A stretch of 64,000 bases of DNA, taken from the sequence record NC_105514.1. One strand, 5' to 3'. The stretch is from Escherichia phage JLBYU40. This document shows, one piece after another, positions 4,865-42,213 of this stretch. The notes under the pieces were generated by a model. That model did no database searches and was not told the DNA's origin. It saw only the letters and a list, made by a program, of their open reading frames with translations. The position numbers were made by a program, and so were the translations under genes. The stretch's first letter is position 1. Each line of letters opens with the position of its first letter.

Positions 4865-5581
4865 AATTTTTAAAGAGCGTGGCGGTAAACTTCCCGCCGT
4901 GTAGTTCGTCATTGCCGCCCTACGAGGTAAATACTAGCAAATACCAAAAATGGCGCAACCTTATTTTTGTAAAGAAACGTAAAGACACGATTCACCGGAT
5001 GGCGTGCGGCGACCTGGGCGCGGCGCATTAAAATTAAAGGAAACGGGCGCGCGAATACCACAAAACATAGCAGATAGGCAAGTAATTTTTTCATTTATAT
5101 TTGCTTTGCCCTACTTGACAAAATCTAAAAAGCTCAGGGTAGCGATAAACGGGCTATCCCTTTATGATGGGATGCCTGAAAAATTTACCGCGTCAGAAAG
5201 CGTTTTAGGCGGCTTATTTTCGATTTAACAAATATTTAACAAAAGCAAAATTGAAAAATAGTTGAAAAAGGTCTTGACTTTTAAAAATCAAGACTAAACG
5301 AGTTATTTTATAAAATTAATTAATTGACTTTTGTTTGTTGTTGTGTATTAGAAAGATAGCAGACTAATAATTACTAGAATGATAATCATGCTGGTGGATT
5401 GTAACAGCCTGAACCATTAGCAGACTATTAATCACGGAAAATCTCATTAGCCAACTAACTATTTCATGATATATAATATACTTATAAATTAATGAGAAAT
5501 AATAAGTATAATAAATAATAACTACAGTAAATAATAACTATAAGAAATTATCGGCCTAAGTGAGAACCACTATCATTTAAG

Positions 5582-5689
5582 TTATCCACAAGTTTATTAA
5601 CAGCACAAAATGATTTGACACGATAGGCGGCGATATAAAGACTTATCTACAGACTTATCCACAGGTTATCCTACTGTATAAATATACAG
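5582..5689. repeat. left arm of ~110-bp imperfect inverted repeat with DnaA boxes
   Basis: TTATCCACA at 5582-5590 and 5655-5663, TTATCTACA at 5643, palindrome CTGTATAAATATACAG at 5674-5689. Confidence 0.65.
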
Positions 5690-5956
5690 GGTAAATGGGT
5701 AGTATATTATAAGGATGTCGATTTTAAGCGGCCTAAAACGCTTTCTAACGAGCTAAATGCGGTGGGGTAATATTAAAGTAAAGCCTTCACCCGTCGCCCT
5801 GGTGGCTTCGCCGTGTTTTGCTCTTTATTACACCGCTGCGCGGTTATCATAAAAATATGCGCTAGGCAAGGAAAATAAAAAGGTAAAATAATCTTTGCCT
5901 ATGCTAGAAAATTACCTTTATCATTCACTCACCGATTAACGAGGGAGGCTGAACAA

Positions 5957-6967
5957 ATGAGGCTTTATAAACCTGATAATGCCACCGTTTTAAAAGGTGC
6001 ATTGCGCAACCTGCTGGACGGTAGCAAGTCAACCAGCATTAAACATTTTATTAACAAGGTTGAAACTATTCATCAAAACTTTTTTGATGAATATGACGCC
6101 TATGATATGGATAGTTTTCTACCCTTATATAAGCAAGGGGCAACGCTAGTTTTATATAATCGGGATTGCCATATCTTTACAGGCAGGGGAGCGGGACCGG
6201 ATACCGATTTTATTGTTGCGCAGGGCAATACTATTGTTGCGTATCATAGCAATTCAGGCCGTCAATCATTTAATATAAATGCTTTTGAGCTTATTGGGCT
6301 TGATCTTATAAACGGGCTTTCTAGCATTGAGGGATTTTTAGATGTTATCTGGAAGTATTTACCCGCTGGATGGTATAAGCCGGATAATGACGGATCTCAA
6401 TATACCGCTATAATGGCTTTTGATGGCGATGGTAATTTTTTGTTACCTTCGAAATTATACCCTTATGTATATAATGATCTAATAGAAGAGGCTGGTTTTT
6501 CTTTCTGGAAAGATGATGATCAGCCCATTGACAATATAGAAAACCATGCTGTAAATTCTAACACTCAAAGCGTTAACACTCAAACTACTGAAAACAAAGG
6601 AAAAAATACCATGACCAAGATCGCTAATATCGTTGCCGCTAATAAATCCGCCGTTGTAAATGCTGCAAAACTGGAAGCGGGTAAAATTGCACTGACTCAA
6701 ATTACGAAAGTAGCGGCTAAAAAAGCACCGTTCATGATTAAAGGTTATATTGATACACCTATCGGTCGAGTAGTGATTGCCAACCTGCTGAGCGTAGCGG
6801 TTGACCAGTATGCCCCGAACAACCAGAAAGCGAAAGCGGTAGCAGGTGCAGCTATGGAAGCGGCTATGTTAGAAATGGTACAAAGTTTCAATATTGCTGA
6901 AATGATTGATGAAATGGTAAAAGGTATTGATATTTCTACTTTTACTACTAACACTGAAAGCGAGTAA
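5957..6967 (+). CDS. hypothetical pre-early protein (336 aa)
   Basis: RBS GAGGGAGG upstream of ATG; first gene of plus-strand cassette between inverted-repeat arms. Confidence 0.55.
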   Translation: MRLYKPDNATVLKGALRNLLDGSKSTSIKHFINKVETIHQNFFDEYDAYDMDSFLPLYKQGATLVLYNRDCHIFTGRGAGPDTDFIVAQGNTIVAYHSNSGRQSFNINAFELIGLDLINGLSSIEGFLDVIWKYLPAGWYKPDNDGSQYTAIMAFDGDGNFLLPSKLYPYVYNDLIEEAGFSFWKDDDQPIDNIENHAVNSNTQSVNTQTTENKGKNTMTKIANIVAANKSAVVNAAKLEAGKIALTQITKVAAKKAPFMIKGYIDTPIGRVVIANLLSVAVDQYAPNNQKAKAVAGAAMEAAMLEMVQSFNIAEMIDEMVKGIDISTFTTNTESE

Positions 6968-7084
6968 TAAATAATCTAATGTAAAGTTTTGTAAAGGCCG
7001 CCTTTTATGGTGGCCTTTTTTGTTATAATGCCTTTACACCGTTTGAGGACGGTTGAAAATTTCCCAAAAAATTGGAGGCTTAAA

Positions 7085-7315
7085 ATGGTTGCATATTCTT
7101 CTTCTGACGCTCTTTTCACTGGAAAAGGCTGGGTATCAAATCGCTGGATCATTCAAGAAATGGTGCAAGAATACGGCATTGCTAAAACTTACACTACCAT
7201 TCAGGCGCTTTATGATAATGATCAAATCGATCAGCAAACGGCTGGCTTTTTGCTGGATACCCTGAAGGCGGAACATTGCACCAAAAAACAAGCCGCTAAA
7301 ATTATTTTAATGTAA
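7085..7315 (+). CDS. hypothetical protein
   Basis: in-frame ATG at 7085 preceded by RBS TGGAGG; the longer 7007 start lacks an RBS. Confidence 0.45.
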   Translation: MVAYSSSDALFTGKGWVSNRWIIQEMVQEYGIAKTYTTIQALYDNDQIDQQTAGFLLDTLKAEHCTKKQAAKIILM

Positions 7316-7513
7316 TTAATAACGGGGCGTTACTTTCGCCCCACTAACTAGGAGAATGAAAATGGTTATTTTTCGAGCTATTTTAGCGGGTATCTTGGGC
7401 GCTATTTTATCGTTGTTTGCAATAGCTTTCGGTGTTCACGCCGTTATTATCGGCGCGGGGATTGCCATTTTTTCTTATTTGCTGGGCTGCATGACTAGTA
7501 AAGGAGAATAAAA

Positions 7514-7726
7514 ATGATCCGCAACGTTTCTCTTGCTCGTTCGAAAGGCTTTAAGCTGGTGGACGTTAACACGTTCGAGCGTGAAGATTGTAAAATCGAA
7601 TATGTAGCGCGGAATAAAAACGCTTTTCGTGTTACCGAGAAAAAATTCGATAAGCGCGGCAACGTGATAGCTGAAACAGTTAAACATTTTGCCACCTTTT
7701 ACGCTGCGTTTCGTGGGGTACTATGA
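7514..7726 (+). CDS. hypothetical protein
   Basis: 70 aa; RBS AAGGAGA upstream. Confidence 0.45.
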   Translation: MIRNVSLARSKGFKLVDVNTFEREDCKIEYVARNKNAFRVTEKKFDKRGNVIAETVKHFATFYAAFRGVL

Positions 7727-7849
7727 AAAGCGTTATCATTATTATCCTTGCAATGGTTGGCGGTTTTACCGCCACCTTATTTAAAAATGATCCCCTTTTA
7801 CTGGGGATTTTTATGCTTTTATCTGGCTATCTGATTGGGAGGTTATAAA

Positions 7850-8194
7850 ATGGTAATTTATGAAGGCAATCGTTTTGTTGCTAATTGCCGTCCTGCATTG
7901 CTAGCAAATTACTTAAATCAGCTTTCACCAGCTTATAAGGGCGTCATTAATATTTACGAGGGCAAAGCGCATTATAAGATTAATGCGGTCGTTGCCCGTG
8001 AACTAGCGTTTCAATTTTTGACCTTTGCATCTTGTGACGTTCAGGTCATGGGTGAGGCGTTAATTGCAGAAAATGATGATGATTTTATTAACATTTTTCG
8101 CAAGGTATGCACCGAGCGCCTGATAATGAAAGGCGCATATATTCAATCCACTGCGGATAGTATTGAAACAGCGTTTCGAAAGGTGGCGCAATGA
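7850..8194 (+). CDS. hypothetical protein
   Basis: ATG at 7850 preceded by RBS GGGAGG; internal start of the 7835 ORF. Confidence 0.45.
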   Translation: MVIYEGNRFVANCRPALLANYLNQLSPAYKGVINIYEGKAHYKINAVVARELAFQFLTFASCDVQVMGEALIAENDDDFINIFRKVCTERLIMKGAYIQSTADSIETAFRKVAQ

Positions 8195-9046: not shown

Positions 9047-9647
9047 TGTGCAAATCCGACATTGCTCCACTGGTGTTACGTGTGGGCATGTATGTGCGAA
9101 TCCGACAATTTTTGGTAGTGTGCAAATCCGACCCGAAAAATTTTTATAGTGTGCAAATCCGACAATGAATTTTCCCAAAAACTCCAGCAATCCGATGCTG
9201 CGCATCAATCCTGTGGAATTAGCTAGAATATGTGCAAATCCGACATGGGTTTATTTGTGCGAATCCGACAAGATTTTTGTGACTTTGATTGGAGGGTGTG
9301 TGATTGTATGGGTTTGAGGAGAAGATGAGAGAGTGAGAGAAATTTGAGGGAACTGTGAGAGGGGCGCAGGATTGGTGCGGAGCACCTGATTTGCGGGGAT
9401 TTTGGGGAAGAGTTGAGAAGATTTGGGTTAATTTGAGATAGGTGCAGAAAAAGCGAAATTTTATTAGCTAAAGGGGGTAAAATAGCTTGACAAGTGAAAA
9501 TTTCTGTGGCTCAAAAAACACAAGCAATCATGGGCCTTCGGCCCGAAATAATGCTGCTATTTTCAGGAGAGTAAGAGTTCCTAAAAACTTAGGCGTTTGT
9601 GCAAATCCGACCATAAATTTCTAGAAATGCAGTGTGCAAATCCGACA
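9047..9647. repeat. iteron array: 8 co-oriented copies of TGTGCRAATCCGACM
   Basis: copies near 9047, 9093, 9118, 9150, 9230, 9256, 9598, 9633. Confidence 0.7.
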
Positions 9648-9690
9648 GTAATTTCTGGAAATGTGTTTTCAAAAAATGTTTCCTAGAAAT

Positions 9691-9763
9691 AACCGCCCTC
9701 CCTATAACCGCCCTGTATTAAACCGCCTAGTATATGTTCCTAGAAACTTAGGAGAACCGCCCT
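9691..9763. repeat. cluster of four AACCGCC(C/T) repeats with CTAGAAA palindromes
   Basis: AACCGCCCT at 9691, 9706, 9755 and AACCGCCTA at 9721. Confidence 0.6.
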
Positions 9764-10110
9764 AGAAAGAGCGGTATCTCGTGAGAACTCTGGAGTTTCT
9801 AGGAAAGTGTTATGCCATCCTAGCAGATGAGCGGCAACAGGTGTATCATCTTGAACACAGATATTGCCTTTAAATATTATAAGGTAAATTAAAAGTAAAG
9901 TAGCCCCCATTACATGTGTGCTTACTCGTGGGGCGCGTGATTAATTACGTAAGTCCTCGACTGTCATACCCCTGTTGCTCGGTCGCAAAGAGTTAACGAA
10001 GTCTCGTGTAATAATCATCGCCCCTAGAGTTCAAAACAAGAGTTGTTTTTAATCTATGTGATTATTATAACATGTGCCGCAATGAGTTGTCAAGAAGATT
10101 TTGTTAACGT

Positions 10111-10338
10111 TTATACATCCTCTTCGAGATTGGTATTGGGATCGTAAATTTTCTTAGCTCCTGTATTTAATAGGAATCGCTCTGCAAGTTGTGGGTGAAT
10201 ATCAAAGAACTCTGTGCATCCTTCGAATCCCTTTAAATTACAGCGGTATTTCTTAAAGTAGATATGTGCAGCGGCTTCTAGATCTCTAGGATTATGGGTT
10301 TCATAGATTCCCATACACGTATAAATCGTCAAAACCAC
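10111..10338 (-). CDS. hypothetical protein
   Basis: 75 aa ORF. Confidence 0.35.
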   Translation of the reverse strand: MVLTIYTCMGIYETHNPRDLEAAAHIYFKKYRCNLKGFEGCTEFFDIHPQLAERFLLNTGAKKIYDPNTNLEEDV

Positions 10339-10454
10339 GATAAACTATCTTATCTAAGTTTAGTGTTTGAATCCTATTATGTGGGTTCATACTAATACTG
10401 ATCTTTGTTCTCTTAGGGATCTTCGTCAGATCCCTATTTGCAAGAATATATACT

Positions 10455-11171
10455 TTATATAGTGACATTCTTTCTAGCCTTGAGTTTGATACCGAGAGAT
10501 GCGAAGTAGATATAAGTTGCTAAATAGGACATAGCAGATCCTGTCTCTTCGTAAGACAGAGTCCCTTTCACGTACCGCTCATATTCTGGCTCTAGATTAA
10601 TAATCGTAGTACTTGGCAATCCTAGCGAATTACATAATGATTTGAATGTTTCTTTATCTCTATGAATCGCATAGTGAATGGCTTTCTCTGTAGGAGTTAG
10701 TTCTAGATCTTTGGTAATGGCTACGTGCAAACTCGCTATAGTCATGCCAATTCCACGATACGTTTCTTCCTTATTAAGGGAAGGTTTCTGTTTCTCTAGC
10801 TCAGGAAGATGTGCAAATTCTCCTTTCTTTCTAGGAATCTTATCATCACTAAGTAATGCTGTTAAGAAATCTGTTTCTTCATAGGCTGGGAGCACTTCAT
10901 CAATCAATACTAGAATAGAACTAGCATTGATACCTTTCGCACTAGGATCTAAAGATTTTAACGCTTTATTAGTTTCAACGTAGGAGCCTGCTAATACTAC
11001 CTTTGAGCTATTCCTATCATATTTAATTTTATTAGCTTCCCAACGTGCAGGACGATAATCAGATAGGAACATTACAGCATACTTCTGTTCATCAGTTAGC
11101 TCAGAGAAACATTTCTGGTTTGATTCTTTTGCTAATGCAATAAGATGCTTTAGTTTTTCTGCTTTATTCAT
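10455..11171 (-). CDS. hypothetical early protein
   Basis: 238 aa ORF. Confidence 0.5.
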   Translation of the reverse strand: MNKAEKLKHLIALAKESNQKCFSELTDEQKYAVMFLSDYRPARWEANKIKYDRNSSKVVLAGSYVETNKALKSLDPSAKGINASSILVLIDEVLPAYEETDFLTALLSDDKIPRKKGEFAHLPELEKQKPSLNKEETYRGIGMTIASLHVAITKDLELTPTEKAIHYAIHRDKETFKSLCNSLGLPSTTIINLEPEYERYVKGTLSYEETGSAMSYLATYIYFASLGIKLKARKNVTI

Positions 11172-11173
11172 TG

Positions 11174-11563
11174 TTAAACCTCTTGAGCTTTATCTTCTGT
11201 ATAGAAATCTTCGGTAGCTTGATAGTGTAATGTAAAGAATTCAAATGACAAGCAATCTGATGCTGTATTTTGAATGTATCTTAATTCATTAATAAAGGAT
11301 TCTTTGAAGATCTTACGGTTAGGTTTTAGTTCTATCAGTTGGTTAATAAGCTCACCGATTAATTCTATTGCATCATCTATATACTCATCCATAAATACTG
11401 GGGATTCATAGATTATTTCCTCAACTCCATTAGTAACTAAAGCTACTACAATTACCTCTCCGGCAGTTTCTTCAGGGTAGAGATAACCTGCATCTATTTT
11501 ACGAACAGTAACACGAGTTTGACTAGTAATTTGACGATTTATAGCAATAATATAATGTAACAT
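11174..11563 (-). CDS. hypothetical early protein
   Basis: 129 aa; 2-nt gap to downstream gene. Confidence 0.5.
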   Translation of the reverse strand: MLHYIIAINRQITSQTRVTVRKIDAGYLYPEETAGEVIVVALVTNGVEEIIYESPVFMDEYIDDAIELIGELINQLIELKPNRKIFKESFINELRYIQNTASDCLSFEFFTLHYQATEDFYTEDKAQEV

Positions 11564-36342: not shown

Positions 36343-36862
36343 TTAGAAATTTAGCTTCATAGCAAGAAAATTTTTCAAGTTTTCGGTAGACATCTCATCT
36401 ACATCTACAGGAGAAACAAAGCCGTTTAATTTTCTAGCAAATTTTTCACCATCGGGATCATTGTCTCCAACAGCTACCAATTTAAAAGGTAGTAATTTCA
36501 GTTGCTTTAATAACGCTTTTCCTGGAGAAGAACCCAACATTGCTAGGGCTGGATAACCAGCGTTATGTAACGCAACTGCCTTAAATACAGATTCAGCAAT
36601 CAATACTACTTTTTCATCTCCATTGAGAGTTTCTAGTCCCCATACACACTGGGTAGTAGAATAAGTAAAGTATTTAGCTTCAAAGGGGCACTTACCATGA
36701 CCTTTTGGAGCAGAAGGATTATAAGTTTGATAGCCCCTCAACATCCCAGAGAAGTCATACAACGGGACTGTTAGCCATCCTTCTGGACTTAACCAGCAAT
36801 GATATTTATCTGTATCAAATCCCCTAGATAAGAGGTGCTGTGTTAGCTCATCAACATTCATA
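36343..36862 (-). CDS. Toprim-domain protein
   Basis: 173 aa from the Met at 36862 beside an early promoter; IAES...VAVGDNDPDGEKFA resembles the Toprim E + DxD signature. Confidence 0.45.
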
Positions 36863-37036
36863 TTTGGTTCCTCTCTCAAATTTATAGATATATTATACAG
36901 AGAATTTAGCATTCAAGCAATCAAATTTTTTAACTTTTTAGAGGAAAATCATAGGGCGCTTAAGGGTAACAGATAAGTGGTGAGGACCAAAATTTGTGAC
37001 CCCACTAAAAATCCGGGGGCAATTTTTAAAGACCCC

Positions 37037-37065
37037 TTGACATTTTCGCTGGGGTAGTGTAAAGT
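37037..37065 (+). promoter_or_regulatory. sigma70-type promoter of the plus-strand island
   Basis: perfect -35 TTGACA (37037-37042), 17-bp spacer, -10 TAAAGT preceded by TG; unlike the phage early promoter family. Confidence 0.5.
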
Positions 37066-37127
37066 ATATGTTATGGATGAGTGATCAAAGAGACACACAT
37101 TTTCTATATACTAGGAGGTGTCAAAAA

Positions 37128-38114
37128 ATGACAGAAGAAGTAGCTAAGAGTCCTGAGACCGTCGCTAGCGTTGCAGCAGAACTGCACCGTCACGAGGAAT
37201 CAGATAAGAAAAAGTGGGAGAAGGTCAGAGCCTACGAAGAAAAACATCGTGAACACGATGATGAAGAAGATGACGATGATGAACATTGTCATAAATATGG
37301 AAAACATAAAATGCAAGAACCAGTAAACGTATTCACTAGTGGCTTCCCTGGCCTACTGGGTGGTTACCCAGCAAACGCAGGTGCTTTCGGTGGTGAAGGT
37401 ATGGGACTATTCGGAGCTATCCTAATCGGTGCTCTATTAACAGGTGGATTCGGTGGTTTCGGTGGATTCGGTGGACGTGGTGTAGTTGGTGAAGGTACCG
37501 CAGTTGATGCAGTACTTCAGAACCAAGATACCGCTAGTATTCTAGCAGCTATTAACACTACTCGTACAGAAGCTAATCAGGGTACTGGGGCTGTGTTAAG
37601 CGCAGTTAACAATGGTTTTAGCCAGACATCCCAAAACCAGAGCCGTGATACTCAGTCTGTACTAACTACGATTTATGGTACAGGTGCTAATCTGTCTAAT
37701 CAGATCTGCCAGGAAACTCGCAACGTTATTCAGGGTCAGTTCGATCTTTCTCGCCAGATTGATCAATCTTTCGCAGCTAACCAGATAGCTCGTGCACAAG
37801 ATAAATTTGATTCTGCACAGATCGCTTTCCAGCAGACTTTACAAACTAATAACCAGTTTGCCGCTGTTCAGGCTCAGATGTGTGCTAACCAGAACTCTCT
37901 GGAACGTCAGATCGCTGAATGTTGCTGTGAACTTCAGACTGCGATCGCTGGTGTAACTACTGCGCGTATCCAGGATGAGTTAGATGCATGTCGCCTACGT
38001 GAGGCAATCGCTGCGGGTAATGGTGCTAACGATCAGGTAATTAATCAAATCGCTGTAAGTCTTGGTGCAATCACTCAGACTCTGGCTGGTCTGCAGGCTA
38101 AACTGCCGGCTTAA
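37128..38114 (+). CDS. glycine-zipper membrane protein with acidic/His-rich N-terminus and Q/N-rich C-terminus
   Basis: 328 aa from ATG 37128 (RBS TAGGAGGTG); GLFGAILIGALLTGGFGGFGGFGG segment; CCC motif; GC visibly above flanks. Confidence 0.55.
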   Translation: MTEEVAKSPETVASVAAELHRHEESDKKKWEKVRAYEEKHREHDDEEDDDDEHCHKYGKHKMQEPVNVFTSGFPGLLGGYPANAGAFGGEGMGLFGAILIGALLTGGFGGFGGFGGRGVVGEGTAVDAVLQNQDTASILAAINTTRTEANQGTGAVLSAVNNGFSQTSQNQSRDTQSVLTTIYGTGANLSNQICQETRNVIQGQFDLSRQIDQSFAANQIARAQDKFDSAQIAFQQTLQTNNQFAAVQAQMCANQNSLERQIAECCCELQTAIAGVTTARIQDELDACRLREAIAAGNGANDQVINQIAVSLGAITQTLAGLQAKLPA

Positions 38115-38135
38115 TATTAAGGGGAGGAGCCCATT

Positions 38136-38552
38136 ATGAGTAAATATGGTTTTGTAAATAACGGACTTAATCAAAGTATGGGCTCCCAGCAGCCCATTCC
38201 GGGTCTGGATAACCCCTACTTACAACAATTGCAACAGCGTTTAGCAGAAGCGCAACAGATGCAGCAACAACTCCAGCAAAACCCTGGAAGTGTGAGTCCT
38301 ATGCAAATGATGCAGCAAATGAGCGGGCAGTCGCAAATGCCTCAACAAATGCAGCAACAGGTGCCTCAGCAGCAAGTTCAGCAACAAACCCAACAACCGC
38401 AGGTTTCTGCGGAAGGACAGGCAGTACTAGCCCTTTTCGAAGACTTCGCAAAGACAGAGGATGGGAAACAGCTTGTATCACTTATGGGTAAGTTTAATAG
38501 CTTCTGCCAAAGCCAGGTTGCAAAAGCTCAAAATAGTGGTAATAACTCCTAA
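38136..38552 (+). CDS. glutamine-rich low-complexity protein
   Basis: 138 aa; RBS GGGGAGGAG; long Q/M/P-rich stretch. Confidence 0.5.
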   Translation: MSKYGFVNNGLNQSMGSQQPIPGLDNPYLQQLQQRLAEAQQMQQQLQQNPGSVSPMQMMQQMSGQSQMPQQMQQQVPQQQVQQQTQQPQVSAEGQAVLALFEDFAKTEDGKQLVSLMGKFNSFCQSQVAKAQNSGNNS

Positions 38553-38561
38553 GGAGGAATT

Positions 38562-38756
38562 ATGTGTTGCAGAAAATCTGTTTCGTGCTGCCCAATGCCT
38601 GTAGCACGTTGTTGCTCTCCAGCAATGTTTACGCAAATACCGGCGTTCAATCCGTTTGCCTTTAAGCCTACTCTTATCCTGCCCCCTAGAGTAGATTTTC
38701 AGTCAAGATTGGCCTCCCGTATGGGTAGTTGCTGTAACAAGAGTATATGGTTCTAA
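38562..38756 (+). CDS. small Cys-rich protein
   Basis: 64 aa; RBS AAGGAGG; four CC doublets. Confidence 0.45.
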   Translation: MCCRKSVSCCPMPVARCCSPAMFTQIPAFNPFAFKPTLILPPRVDFQSRLASRMGSCCNKSIWF

Positions 38757-38769
38757 GGAACCAAACAAT

Positions 38770-38810
38770 AAAGCCCCTAGTCGAAAGACTTAGGGGCTTT
38801 TCTTTTATCT
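38770..38810 (+). terminator. Rho-independent terminator of the plus-strand island
   Basis: ~11-bp GC-rich stem with GAAA loop followed by TTTTCTTTTATCTT. Confidence 0.6.
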
Positions 38811-38851
38811 TAAATACAGAAAAGCCCTGCGCTCTCTAGGAAACGCAGGGC
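38811..38851 (-). terminator. Rho-independent terminator for the SPFH gene
   Basis: 9-bp stem AGCCCTGCG/CGCAGGGCT with a T-run on the minus strand. Confidence 0.55.
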
Positions 38852-38876
38852 TTATTTCAGATGTTACATGCGGGTA

Positions 38877-39824
38877 TTATTTATTACGCATATCCATAAT
38901 CATTTGGCCATCATAGCCAGTGCCAACCACAGTCTGCGGTACACCACCTTGGTATTTCTGAGCACGAATCATTTCAACTTCCAGTTGCTTCCAGCGAATC
39001 ATCTCAGGAGTAATGGTACGTTGCAATGCGGCGTTAGCTTCAGCTTCTTTCTTAGCTGCATATAGTTTAGCATCTGCGTCACGTTCATTGGCAATAGCTT
39101 GGTTGTTGCGAGCTTCACGGTCTGCTTCTGCTTGTTTAACTTTTTGCTGTGCTTCCTGTTCAACGCGAGCCAGTTCAGCTTTCGCAGCATTAACTTGCTC
39201 TTCACGAACTTTGGTATTCTGTACCTGTTCCATGATTACCGGTGGCAAAGTAATATCCTGAAGGAATACCTGCTTAACTGTATAACCATATGGGCGTGCA
39301 TACTCTTCAACTTCCTGTTGAATTGCAGTTTGCAATTGAGCCTGAATTTTAGCATCAAACAAATCTTGTGCTTTAGGTACAGACTTACCAAACTCACGAA
39401 TAGTAGACAGTAATTTTTCAGTTACATACTTGTCTAGTGCCTGATCCTGAGTACCTGCGTTAATACGGTTAATTGGTGCCTTAGAACCATCAAACTGCAA
39501 CATAACAGTCAGGTCAACAGTGGATTTAAACTTATCCTGGCTAGGAACCTGAAGTTTATCTAATTTTACAGCAATATCTTTTGTACTAAAAGTGTCGAAA
39601 GATGCAAATGGGTTTACAAGATGGAAACCTGGTAATACTGGGTTAGGATCTACTTTACCCAGAAATGTTTGGGTTTTAACCGTACCATCAGAAACAATAG
39701 TATATGAATTAAAAGCTAGGATTAAACCTGCTAAACCAACTACAGCACCAATACCCCAACGTTTAATAGTACGAATTACTTTCTGCTCAGAAGTCAGTTC
39801 TTTCATATTTTTAGTATTAAACAT
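38877..39824 (-). CDS. SPFH/band-7 (prohibitin/HflC-like) membrane protein
   Basis: 315 aa; N-terminal TM helix, SPFH-like core, long charged coiled-coil C-terminus. Confidence 0.6.
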   Translation of the reverse strand: MFNTKNMKELTSEQKVIRTIKRWGIGAVVGLAGLILAFNSYTIVSDGTVKTQTFLGKVDPNPVLPGFHLVNPFASFDTFSTKDIAVKLDKLQVPSQDKFKSTVDLTVMLQFDGSKAPINRINAGTQDQALDKYVTEKLLSTIREFGKSVPKAQDLFDAKIQAQLQTAIQQEVEEYARPYGYTVKQVFLQDITLPPVIMEQVQNTKVREEQVNAAKAELARVEQEAQQKVKQAEADREARNNQAIANERDADAKLYAAKKEAEANAALQRTITPEMIRWKQLEVEMIRAQKYQGGVPQTVVGTGYDGQMIMDMRNK

Positions 39825-39858
39825 ATATTTCCTTTGTTTTAGTTACAGTTAATAAAAT

Positions 39859-39933
39859 TGGCCGAGGTGACAGGATTCGAACCTGCATAAAGGAATTTAG
39901 AAGACTCCTGCCTCTCCCTTAGACTACACCCCG
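39859..39933 (-). tRNA. tRNA-Arg (TCT)
   Basis: acceptor CGGGGTG/CACCTCG, anticodon stem GGAGT/ATTCC, loop CTTCTAA, CCA. Confidence 0.5.
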
Positions 39934-40435
39934 TTTAAGTATTTTTAAGAACTCTCGTAAAAACTCTTAAAAATACAGACGATACCGGGAGAGTCATAGG
40001 TCTCACTCATTAAGTATTTCAAGACAAAATACAGTAACGTCTATTATTTTCCAGTTTAAGTCAGGGTGACTTAGTGGTTATGTCCTGCGGTATATTGAGG
40101 ACTCGGTTAGGCTTGGGGTCATGACTTCCCGCCTTTTGCTGCTACTCAACAGGAGTTATCGCGAATTACCTGTGCTATTGTGCACCATTAGTGACATCTC
40201 TCATGCCAGCATTTCCCACTTTGTGGATAGCTTGAAAAACTACTCCGATATGGAGAAAGAACTTCACTATCCTAGAATACCTTCTAAAGTTCTTCTTTAG
40301 CCTGGACATAGTTAAATCGTAATAAAACTATTCAGCAGACCGGTTGGTTAGTCTGGAACCAACTACCGCGTGGTTTAGGCAGTGCGCAACTAACCTCGGA
40401 AGCTTTTACGTTAAAAGCATCAGTTATCCAGTTCT

Positions 40436-40507
40436 TACCGACCGTAGGATTCGAACCTACATCTTCCACCAGTTACGGCTTGATAATACCAATTATACTA
40501 GGACGGC
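40436..40507 (-). tRNA. tRNA, anticodon unresolved
   Basis: perfect T-arm, acceptor with one U-U mismatch, no encoded CCA; no convincing anticodon stem by eye. Confidence 0.3.
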
Positions 40508-40730
40508 AGTGTTACTACATAAGTGATTTCCACACCCCACTATTTATAAATTAGAGAAGAGTTTAGGGAAGAGGTTTCAGACGCCTCATTTTACACGTTC
40601 TAGCCACTAACCGGGATTGCCGCCCCCTGTGTACTAGTTTTACAACTAACCCACCGACTCTATTCAATGCACTCCGGTTGGGATTCTGCACTCAGCGTAA
40701 TCGGCTCGCTGTTCCCTAATTTATGAATAT

Positions 40731-40759
40731 ATTATACAGAATTTATAAGCATTTAGCAA
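40731..40759 (-). promoter_or_regulatory. early promoter
   Basis: -35 TTGCTA, 17-bp spacer, -10 TATAAT. Confidence 0.5.
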
Positions 40760-40767
40760 ATGAATTT

Positions 40768-41202
40768 TTAGAAAAATTCACTAGCGATCAAAGCAGTTGT
40801 TTTACCGTCATAACGTCCAGGAAATTCTGCCTTAATAGTTTTCATTAATAGAGCTTTGGTAATACCTGGGTTTAATTTAACCAGTTCTGCAAAATACTCA
40901 CGAATTTCAGTTTCAGTCAGTTGACTTGGCTGATACTCTTGCAGCATGGAATAAAGCAGTTGCTCATAGTCTACATCAGTAGGAACTTTCGTACCAACTT
41001 TAATAGCGCGCTGCTTTGCATTTTCTAGAGCCTTAATCTGAGCTTTCAGATAGGCTACAAACTCGGTTCGAGTAACAATGTCTTTATCAATACGTTGCAG
41101 GTCGCCAATCATGGTCTGAAGATTAAGTGCCCGCTCTTTATCACCGTGAGTACGTGCTAGACTAAGCAGTCCACGAAGGGTCATTAGGATATTTTCACCC
41201 AT
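40768..41202 (-). CDS. hypothetical protein
   Basis: 144 aa ORF. Confidence 0.45.
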   Translation of the reverse strand: MGENILMTLRGLLSLARTHGDKERALNLQTMIGDLQRIDKDIVTRTEFVAYLKAQIKALENAKQRAIKVGTKVPTDVDYEQLLYSMLQEYQPSQLTETEIREYFAELVKLNPGITKALLMKTIKAEFPGRYDGKTTALIASEFF

Positions 41203-41440: not shown

Positions 41441-41908
41441 TTAAGTTTTAGTGACAACAGGTTTATAAAACGTATGTCCCTTAATCTTAGTTGTTTTCTT
41501 AAACTTCTTTGTCCAGTAAGGTTTATCTTTACCACTATGGAAGTATAGTGCTCCATGTGTAGGATCTTGTGGTAAATCAACGTAGTATATCACTCTAGCT
41601 AAATTCTTAGCGGTTTGCCAAGCCTCATCAGTTTTATCAACTTTTGGTCTCTTAGATACCCAAGAGAACTGGTTAGACTGATATACTACTTTACAGTAGG
41701 AATCTGGGAATTTACCGGAGTTTACACGGTTTTTAGTAACATGTGCAATCGCCGTCATTCCCTTTATGCCCTCACCACGACTTTCGAAATAGATATTTTT
41801 AGCAATGCAATCTATTTCTTTTGCATCGTGCGATGCCTGACTACTAAAGCTGAAGGTAAGGGCAGCTACTAAAAGCAAAGCTGCCTTCATTCTTTTTACT
41901 ACTGCCAA
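41441..41908 (-). CDS. secreted cell-wall hydrolase (SleB-like)
   Basis: 155 aa; signal peptide; IAHVTKNRV...FPDSYCKVVYQSNQFSW resembles the SleB hydrolase core. Confidence 0.5.
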   Translation of the reverse strand: MAVVKRMKAALLLVAALTFSFSSQASHDAKEIDCIAKNIYFESRGEGIKGMTAIAHVTKNRVNSGKFPDSYCKVVYQSNQFSWVSKRPKVDKTDEAWQTAKNLARVIYYVDLPQDPTHGALYFHSGKDKPYWTKKFKKTTKIKGHTFYKPVVTKT

Positions 41909-42213
41909 TCATATTCAACACGATTGGGATTTTCTTTATACCCTAAGTCAAGCAAATCATTACGCATATTTTGCTTAGCTACTGGGTTCGAGGTTACTAG
42001 TACCACTTTCTTTGGTCTCTGCCCAAATTCTAAGAGTAAACGAAGAATTTGATAACCTTCCATACCATCTACAGCCAAGTCATTATCCATATAAACGAAA
42101 TGGCCTGTGGTATCAGTTTTATTCAGAAACTCTACAGCGGCTTCTGGGGTTCGAATGATAATGTCCATTCCGTGAAGATTGCGCACGTCATCAATCAAAA
42201 TATGAAAAGTCAT
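41899..42213 (-). CDS. hypothetical protein (possible receiver-like fold)
   Basis: 104 aa; weak resemblance only. Confidence 0.35.
   Translation of the reverse strand: MTFHILIDDVRNLHGMDIIIRTPEAAVEFLNKTDTTGHFVYMDNDLAVDGMEGYQILRLLLEFGQRPKKVVLVTSNPVAKQNMRNDLLDLGYKENPNRVEYDWQ

Follow-up and report, generated by a model that had tools for sequence, protein, structure and literature searches.

T5.080 of T5-like phages is a stand-alone SPFH/Band 7 gene that probably encodes an oligomeric membrane scaffold

We analysed a 64,000-nucleotide stretch of Escherichia phage JLBYU40 (NC_105514.1; hereafter the window, to which coordinates refer unless another record is named) and describe here the gene at 38877..39824 on the minus strand. 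By sequence comparison this gene is the orthologue of T5.080 in a T5-like (Tequintavirus) phage, and its 315-amino-acid product belongs to the SPFH/Band 7 superfamily: the Band_7 profile, the fold with its coiled-coil helices and the N-terminal membrane segment are all present. In general terms, we consider it very probable that the protein is an oligomeric SPFH membrane scaffold acting alone. The best overall explanation goes further and sees an early accessory single-pass inner-membrane scaffold that encloses a membrane patch, with a predicted periplasmic topology and a role towards a protease client; we rate this complete account at a little better than even.

The open reading frame (ORF) starts with ATG and is preceded at a distance of 5 nt by a Shine-Dalgarno sequence, AAGGA, read directly from the sequence at 39830..39834 (minus strand). 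Its product is 99.4 % identical at the amino acid level to T5.080 of phage T5 (AY543070, 39791-40738) and matches PHROG 200 with E=1.7e-86, while the DNA of the region is 97-98 % identical to the T5-like phages slur09, BB1 and Kenya-K37. We take the gene to be real and not a chance ORF because of the identity to T5.080 together with ratios of nonsynonymous to synonymous substitution (dN/dS) of 0.009-0.12 across relatives. A decaying gene is likewise ruled out by these ratios and by the conservation among homologues. The gene is already catalogued and several GenBank records carry names such as 'SPFH domain / Band 7 family protein', 'band 7 domain-containing protein', 'PHB domain-containing protein' or 'protease regulator', so that the present analysis re-identifies a known gene. 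RefSeq entries mostly call it 'lipoprotein'. We looked in the literature for work on T5.080, on SPFH proteins in connection with T5, FtsH or anti-phage activity, and on prohibitin and superinfection exclusion, and no functional study came up; the HIDEN-SEQ preprint leaves out T5-like phages.

The initial annotation had described, from the letters alone, a protein with an N-terminal transmembrane (TM) helix, an SPFH-like core and a long charged coiled-coil tail, and it had proposed a profile search as a check. Both the hidden Markov model search and the predicted fold agree with that description. The Pfam family Band_7 (PF01145) matches residues 52-225 over profile positions 13-176 of 176 with 64.2 bits and E=2e-17, where the curated cut-off is 23.6 bits. 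This domain corresponds to 39150..39671 (minus strand) and is supported by an overlapping alpha/beta domain in the structure prediction and by the Foldseek alignments. Ahead of it, a single N-terminal TM signal-anchor at residues 23-43 (39696..39758, minus strand) follows a K/R-rich tail of 22 residues. This is the sole hydrophobic stretch of the protein (maximum KD19 of 1.79, hydropathy peak at 25-43), and the N-terminal segment is conserved among homologues. Behind the domain, composition, predicted secondary structure and full-length alignment to cage subunits define a long charged helix (residues 195-270) and a second helix (273-290), together at 38955..39242 on the minus strand. This helical tail measures about 95 residues; 72 % of residues 206-270 are A, Q, E, K or R and 38 % are charged. 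The protein ends in a motif conserved in the homologue alignment, Y..GGVPQTVVG..Y.G.MIMDMR, at residues 291-315 (38880..38954, minus strand).

An AlphaFold2 monomer model was built on 24 homologues and has a mean predicted local distance difference test score (pLDDT) of 77.7. In it, residues 12-38 form a helix and residues 41-192 an alpha/beta domain, which is followed by an uninterrupted helix of about 76 residues (195-270) and a further helix (273-290). Across most of residues 195-290 the pLDDT is 75-91, and it falls below 50 at residues 291-315. Residues 195-290 correspond to the helices CC1/CC2 that make up wall and cap in SPFH cages. The terminal 25 residues may form a cap segment of the oligomer that becomes ordered only upon assembly.

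Comparison of the model with the PDB using Foldseek gave 63 matches at E<=1e-3. Each of the top 37 listed is an SPFH cage subunit, with an alignment spanning 266-318 columns. Full-chain matches include erlin1/2 (E=2e-14), prohibitin 1/2 (about 1e-12), stomatin, HflK/C, QmcA and flotillin, with E from 2e-14 to 8e-8 at 13-20 % identity. At the sequence level the best match in the PDB is QmcA (E 1.8e-6, and 5.5e-7 in a second search), and PHB2 (8.6e-5) and, with the profile, PHB1 (1.6e-4) are found as well.

Membership in the superfamily does not place the protein in one of the well-known bacterial families. The T5.080 orthologue is neither an HflK nor an HflC orthologue, belongs to no SPFH-NfeD pair and is no lipoprotein. 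Its sequence is free of cysteine and therefore has no lipobox, which makes the 'lipoprotein' label wrong; its hydrophobic segment of about 21 residues has the length of a signal anchor. The label has spread via PHROG 200 and via many RefSeq entries, for T5-like and for T4-like phages.

The orientation of the protein in the membrane can be predicted from charge. Its 22-residue N-tail holds 6 K/R and 2 D/E, and in 20 of 26 homologues the N-terminal flank of the TM segment is more positive than the C-terminal flank. Because the K/R-rich tail is found here and in these homologues, an N-in signal anchor with a periplasmic dome is predicted. This suggests a cytoplasmic N-terminus and an SPFH dome in the periplasm, as in HflK/C and, topologically, in prohibitins and erlins. 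Alternatively, the protein could be a cytoplasm-facing homo-oligomer of the stomatin or QmcA type working without an NfeD partner. QmcA is cytoplasm-facing, is the best sequence match in the PDB and is likewise made from one SPFH gene, and stomatin stands among the top fold matches. We nevertheless regard this opposite orientation as quite unlikely, given that most homologues carry the K/R-rich tail ahead of the TM segment, that no NfeD-like gene is adjacent, and that the top fold matches, erlin and PHB, are oriented towards the non-cytoplasmic side.

SPFH domes of the HflK/C-prohibitin type enclose a patch of membrane and control which membrane proteins meet FtsH-type proteases. By analogy, the periplasmic scaffold that we favour might work as follows. 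Early in infection, the T5.080 protein would be inserted into the inner membrane as a single-pass SPFH protein and would assemble into a ring or dome around a patch of the host membrane. A homo-oligomer is proposed because there is a single gene without a paralogue. The periplasmic cage could then segregate inner-membrane proteins and govern their access to FtsH or to another membrane client. The outcome would be a shift of inner-membrane proteostasis in hosts (E. coli, Salmonella, Klebsiella) that have no copy of this SPFH paralogue of their own. Modulation of a host membrane protease, also raised in the initial annotation, is a reasonable analogy to HflK/C and prohibitin. As for FtsH specifically, we think a client of this type possible and rather doubtful.

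Several points weigh against this account. HflK/C, prohibitins, erlins and flotillins each combine two paralogues in a hetero-oligomer, and T5.080 is a single gene. A search of NCBIfam with the protein returned no family at E<=0.1, and this includes the equivalog models of HflK and HflC. Assembly into a cage is read from a monomer model and from relatives, and the link to FtsH is drawn by analogy only. The predicted topology has charge bias as its sole basis, and the closest PDB sequence, QmcA, has the other orientation. Finally, loss of T5.080 has no known laboratory phenotype.

That last point comes from two sources. The viable deletion mutant T5st0 lacks T5.069 to T5.080 according to its annotation and gives no tblastn match to the SPFH protein. 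In a genome-wide CRISPRi-ART study of T5, T5.080 is scored 'Not Fit', its knock-down being without effect (PMC11879866, supplementary file 16). At the same time the gene is strongly constrained. Between JLBYU40 and T5 dN/dS is 0.009 (dS=0.29, dN=0.003); it is about 0.06 against Epseptimaviruses, and 0.10-0.12 both against Proteus phage P59 and between two T4-like phages. T5.080 is thus an accessory gene under strong purifying selection that is dispensable in the laboratory. Since it is dispensable yet strongly constrained and kept in about 99 % of T5-like phages, its benefit appears to be hidden under laboratory conditions.

One explanation for such a benefit is membrane integrity. An SPFH assembly could stabilise or repair the inner membrane, in the manner of flotillin- or PspA-associated SPFH proteins, and keep the cell energised until lysis, for example against depolarisation by DNA injection or by abortive-infection effectors that attack the membrane. 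The fold and architecture are shared with scaffolds that organise membrane microdomains, and expression is early. Dispensability in a defence-poor laboratory strain combined with conservation is the pattern of conditionally useful or counter-defence genes, and the SPFH gene lies in hypervariable accessory regions. However, PADLOC models gave no match at E<=0.1, either to the SPFH protein or to any of the three proteins of the neighbouring gene island described below, no homologue with a known anti-defence role emerged, and the literature search found no experimental link. Moreover, a periplasmic domain could not reach the cytoplasmic leaflet, where repair of the PspA type takes place. We consider this explanation unlikely.

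The early expression is taken from the annotation of T5, whose transcription unit was mapped onto JLBYU40. The unit runs on the minus strand from the promoter P16-17 through a region called RNAX and a tRNA-Arg gene to T5.080 and a terminator. The early promoter is 97 % conserved at 40713..40779, as established from the T5 annotation, blastn mapping and a promoter scan, with TTGCTA and TATAAT separated by 17 nt at 40759-40731. RNAX, given in the T5 annotation as a stable RNA with functions unknown, corresponds to 39934..40712 (blastn, 91-98 % identity) between the promoter and the tRNA gene. Within it lies a tRNA-like element at 40436-40507 (minus strand) that scores 35.5 bits in Rfam (gathering score 29, E=4e-5) and is missed by ARAGORN. 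The tRNA-Arg(TCT) at 39859..39933, found by ARAGORN and by Rfam (49.3 bits), is directly upstream of the SPFH gene and belongs to the same unit in T5. The unit is closed by an intrinsic terminator at 38812..38853 (minus strand), a 13-pair stem followed by a T-run that was detected by the terminator scan and as an inverted repeat at 38822-38853. The SPFH gene is therefore a self-contained promoter-to-terminator unit, expressed early according to the T5 annotation. The sequence context of the T5 'major DNA single-chain interruption', a nick, is conserved at 38820-38844 inside the stem-loop of this terminator (GAGAGCGCAGGG).

Beyond the terminator lies a convergent island of three genes, at 37018..38756 on the plus strand, defined from the ORF list, the T5 annotation and mapping. 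It is a separate cassette with the promoter P12 (37018-37092), T5.077 (37128-38114), T5.078 (38136-38552) and T5.079 (38562-38756). The stop of T5.079 at 38756 and the end of the SPFH stop codon at 38877 leave a gap of exactly 120 bp, as the initial annotation had it. Its back-to-back terminators are also there, with one hairpin and T-run per strand: two hairpins with perfect 10-bp stems and T-runs, at 38770-38800 (plus strand) and 38822-38853 (minus strand), match two terminators annotated in phage BB1. The intrinsic terminator of the island, an inverted repeat with a T-run at 38770..38810 (plus strand), corresponds to the 'efficient bidirectional terminator' of T5, an element that maps to 38770-38806.

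From this arrangement it had been proposed that the SPFH protein acts with its glycine-zipper neighbour, which would mean a joint function with T5.077 (a glycine-rich membrane protein), T5.078 and T5.079. The two genes at 120 bp from each other with terminators face to face speak for such a function, as does the presence of the SPFH gene in every T5-like record that has the island. This overlap is trivial, since about 99 % of T5-like phages hold the SPFH gene. A co-occurrence comparison across related phages, which had been suggested as a check, found the two apart in both directions. T5.077 and T5.078 are each present in 221 records only, compared with 437 T5-like records for the SPFH gene. 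In the Epseptimaviruses S133 and phiR2-01 the SPFH gene is followed on the same strand by a NadR-type nicotinamide mononucleotide (NMN) adenylyltransferase and PnuC, and local tblastn at these two loci found no island. In phage Stitch the island separates the SPFH gene from NadR; it is on the opposite strand and looks like an inserted cassette. The SPFH genes of T4-like, Proteus and Vibrio phages come without the island. Conversely, Pseudomonas phage RSP (MK443266) carries adjacent homologues of T5.077 (C-terminal half, 54 %) and T5.078 (46 %) at locus L075, 16466-17392. Neither an SPFH gene in the whole 63-kb RSP record nor DNA similarity of RSP to the JLBYU40 window was found. Adjacent homologues in an otherwise dissimilar phage indicate that the pair T5.077/T5.078 travels as its own unit. 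The distribution contradicts the proposal, on a ground that the initial annotation had itself named as refuting it, and the promoters (P12 and P16-17) and terminators are separate in addition. We give a joint function with the island almost no credence.

The island proteins have no match in Pfam, NCBIfam or PADLOC and are unusual in composition. T5.077 combines an acidic, His-rich N-terminus with a hydrophobic stretch that is very rich in glycine (GGFGGFGGFGGRG) and a remainder rich in Q, N, S and T. T5.078 is glutamine-rich, and the 64 residues of T5.079 include eight cysteines arranged as four CC doublets, with no PHROG match. Like T5.080, the genes T5.077-T5.079 are 'Not Fit' in the CRISPRi-ART study of T5 (PMC11879866, supplementary file 16). 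On the far side of the island, the orthologue of T5.076 at 36343-36912 (minus strand) encodes a Toprim-only primase-like protein (PHROG 849; weak Pfam Toprim_2) that the supplementary table of the same study lists as 'anti-defense, Known, Semi-Fit' (PMC11879866).

The SPFH gene itself is spread widely. By tblastn the protein is found in 724 phage records, and its identity is 80 % or more in 437 of these; the T5-type A1 protein occurs at the same threshold in 440 records, which places the SPFH gene in about 99 % of T5-like phages. Among T4-like phages, identity is 72-78 % in those infecting Klebsiella, Cronobacter and Enterobacter (Slopekvirus, Pseudotevenvirus) and about 60 % in those of Aeromonas. 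For Proteus phage P59 (Grimontviridae) it is 75 %, and for Vibrio phages, one of which is N4-like, 28-41 %. The carriers belong to Demerecviridae, Straboviridae, Grimontviridae, Schitoviridae and unclassified Vibrio phages, and horizontal transfer has spread the gene over no fewer than four or five virulent phage families. Outside phages, Morganella and Providencia have chromosomal homologues that share 57-61 % identity with the phage protein and 89-94 % with one another. Remoter chromosomal homologues at 33-41 % identity are found in methylotrophic and other Gammaproteobacteria (Methylococcaceae, Methylophagaceae and others). No match to the gene was found by blastn in 5,426 complete E. coli genomes, nor by tblastn in the PLSDB plasmids. 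An exhaustive HMMER search of 1.84 billion representative proteins returned 955 relatives with E<=1e-3, of which 170 reach E<=1e-10; given these low numbers, the clade is small and divergent within a very large superfamily.

Two further records carry the gene at 73-78 % identity, NZ_JBHSCL010000010.1 ('Flagellimonas marina', 178,077 bp) and P0028 ('plasmid, Klebsiella pneumoniae', 174 kb). Both have the size of T4-like phage genomes and are probably misfiled phage sequences.

It is conceivable that virulent phages of several families exchange a single-gene, periplasmic, prohibitin-like cage and bring it into hosts without this paralogue, where they would use it to seize the inner-membrane proteostasis of the host (through FtsH or another client) or shield the cell against abortive-infection effectors or superinfection. 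We regard this broader idea as a long shot.

We also looked for genes that accompany the SPFH gene. None was found whose place beside it is kept from one phage family to the next or in bacterial chromosomes, so that the gene stands alone. In JLBYU40 its flanks are the tRNA-Arg gene and the terminator; here and in the other phage families there is a single SPFH gene and no paralogous pair. Pfam searches of the flanking ORFs gave no match to NfeD beside T5.080 or its phage homologues. Small flanking ORFs (Stitch83; ORF097c/099c of phage 31; gp115 of P59) have no similarity to one another.

An NMN adenylyltransferase (NMNAT) gene directly follows the SPFH gene in two lineages. In Epseptimavirus it is of the NadR type (CTP_transf_like+AAA_28) and accompanied by PnuC; in Slopekvirus and Pseudotevenvirus it has the composition CTP_transf_like+NUDIX. 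These regions lie at 6208-7942 in loci L003/L004, 1491-3225 in L009, 6077-7138 in L005 and 5063-6118 in L006. This proximity could mean that the SPFH protein supports the PnuC transporter or the adenylyltransferase in NAD+ salvage. However, the two NMNATs share no BLAST similarity, T5 and the JLBYU40 window hold the SPFH gene without NadR or PnuC, and the Aeromonas, Proteus and Vibrio phages have no NMNAT neighbour. A transferable two-gene module of SPFH and NMNAT was accordingly rejected, and we judge the link to NAD+ salvage highly improbable.

Superinfection exclusion has also been considered, in which the cage would sequester or mask a component of the inner membrane required by other phages for the entry of their DNA. 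Early accessory membrane proteins of virulent phages often exclude superinfection, as do Imm and Sp of T4. The SPFH gene of T4-like phages lies beside rI and rI.-1, sensors of superinfection. In phage PhiSH19 an unrelated SPFH gene adjoins a gene annotated as a superinfection exclusion protein (PMC3220722). Set against this, these are anecdotes of adjacency, the neighbours differ in every phage family, and T5 already has Llp for exclusion (PMC9586334). This role is in our view very unlikely.

Two other sets of neighbours were rejected as partners. A gene for a cyclic-phosphate processing receiver (cREC_REC) followed by one for a SleB-like cell-wall hydrolase (Hydrolase_2) occurs less than 2 kb from the SPFH gene in T5-like phages and in Proteus phage P59. 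The pair is at 41899-42213 and 41441-41908 (both minus strand) in the window and at 5194-5532 and 5638-6015 in locus L008; in T4-like and Vibrio phages it was not seen in the vicinity of the SPFH gene. In T5 the N-terminus of the hydrolase resembles a signal peptide, and in P59 an RtcB gene and a STAND/AAA ATPase gene are found on the other side. Around the bacterial homologues, synteny does not extend beyond a single lineage; housekeeping genes (FolC, AccD, Ndh-like and others) make up the surroundings, with no NfeD or protease partner among them. On Morganella chromosomes (loci L019-L022, about 9100-11200) the homologue adjoins a gene for a small glycine-rich peptide, one for an HlyD-like protein and a large gene among ABC-type exporter-sized proteins. 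These surroundings resemble a microcin or bacteriocin export cluster.

SPFH cages are a current focus of structural work, and structures of HflK/C-FtsH, prohibitin, erlin, stomatin and flotillin from 2022-2026 are among our fold matches. In phages, where a fold search of BFVD finds SPFH proteins to be common, as it does in giant viruses, no SPFH protein is known to have an assigned role, and their function is described as poorly understood in a paper on Erwinia jumbo phages (PMC7760394). T5.080 is a handy test case, being a self-contained single gene of a model phage that is present in about 99 % of T5-like phages and in several unrelated virulent families. Because it can be deleted, the T5st0 mutant and knock-down data are on hand. 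If FtsH capture or membrane protection were true, this would be a new kind of tool for host takeover or counter-defence based on an SPFH cage. In the meantime two corrections can be made, one to the 'lipoprotein' label and one to the supposed link with the island.

Among known systems, HflK/HflC of E. coli, the SPFH cage around FtsH, shares with the T5.080 orthologue a single N-terminal TM anchor, the SPFH domain, a long wall helix and a conserved C-terminus. The fold matches over the full length (7vhq, 7wi3, 9cz2 and 9paw, E 5e-12 to 1e-8), and the N-in periplasmic topology of HflK/HflC is the one predicted for the phage protein. In contrast to that paralogous pair, T5.080 is a single phage gene that is absent from E. 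coli genomes, is 16-18 % identical to HflK/HflC and misses their equivalog models. The eukaryotic type-II anchored cages of prohibitin 1/2 and erlin 1/2 give the best structural matches (9vvj with E 2e-14; 9o9z and 8rrh at about 1e-12) along with weak but significant sequence matches. They too have an N-terminal anchor and a dome on the non-cytoplasmic side, as predicted for T5.080, and some phage homologues are named 'prohibitin family' or 'PHB domain'. Unlike the phage protein they are eukaryotic hetero-oligomers, at 15-19 % identity, and clients of the m-AAA/FtsH or ERAD type are known on their side only.

The E. coli SPFH-NfeD pair QmcA-YbbJ offers, in QmcA, the closest PDB sequence, a similar length and layout and a homo-oligomer of one SPFH gene. 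It differs in that no NfeD gene stands beside T5.080 or its homologues and in that the charge bias of T5.080 predicts the reverse orientation. The chromosomal homologues of Morganella/Providencia (57-61 % identity) and of methylotrophs (33-41 %) are stand-alone genes of equal length and architecture; unlike T5.080, they are cellular, uncharacterised genes in conserved housekeeping neighbourhoods. Other viral SPFH/Band 7 proteins, including those of Vibrio phage pVa5, Rhizobium phage Pasto, Streptomyces phage StarPlatinum and giant viruses, are 13-22 % identical and belong to different SPFH subfamilies, yet they share the fold with the T5.080 orthologue in BFVD, with E values of 3e-18 to 1e-8.

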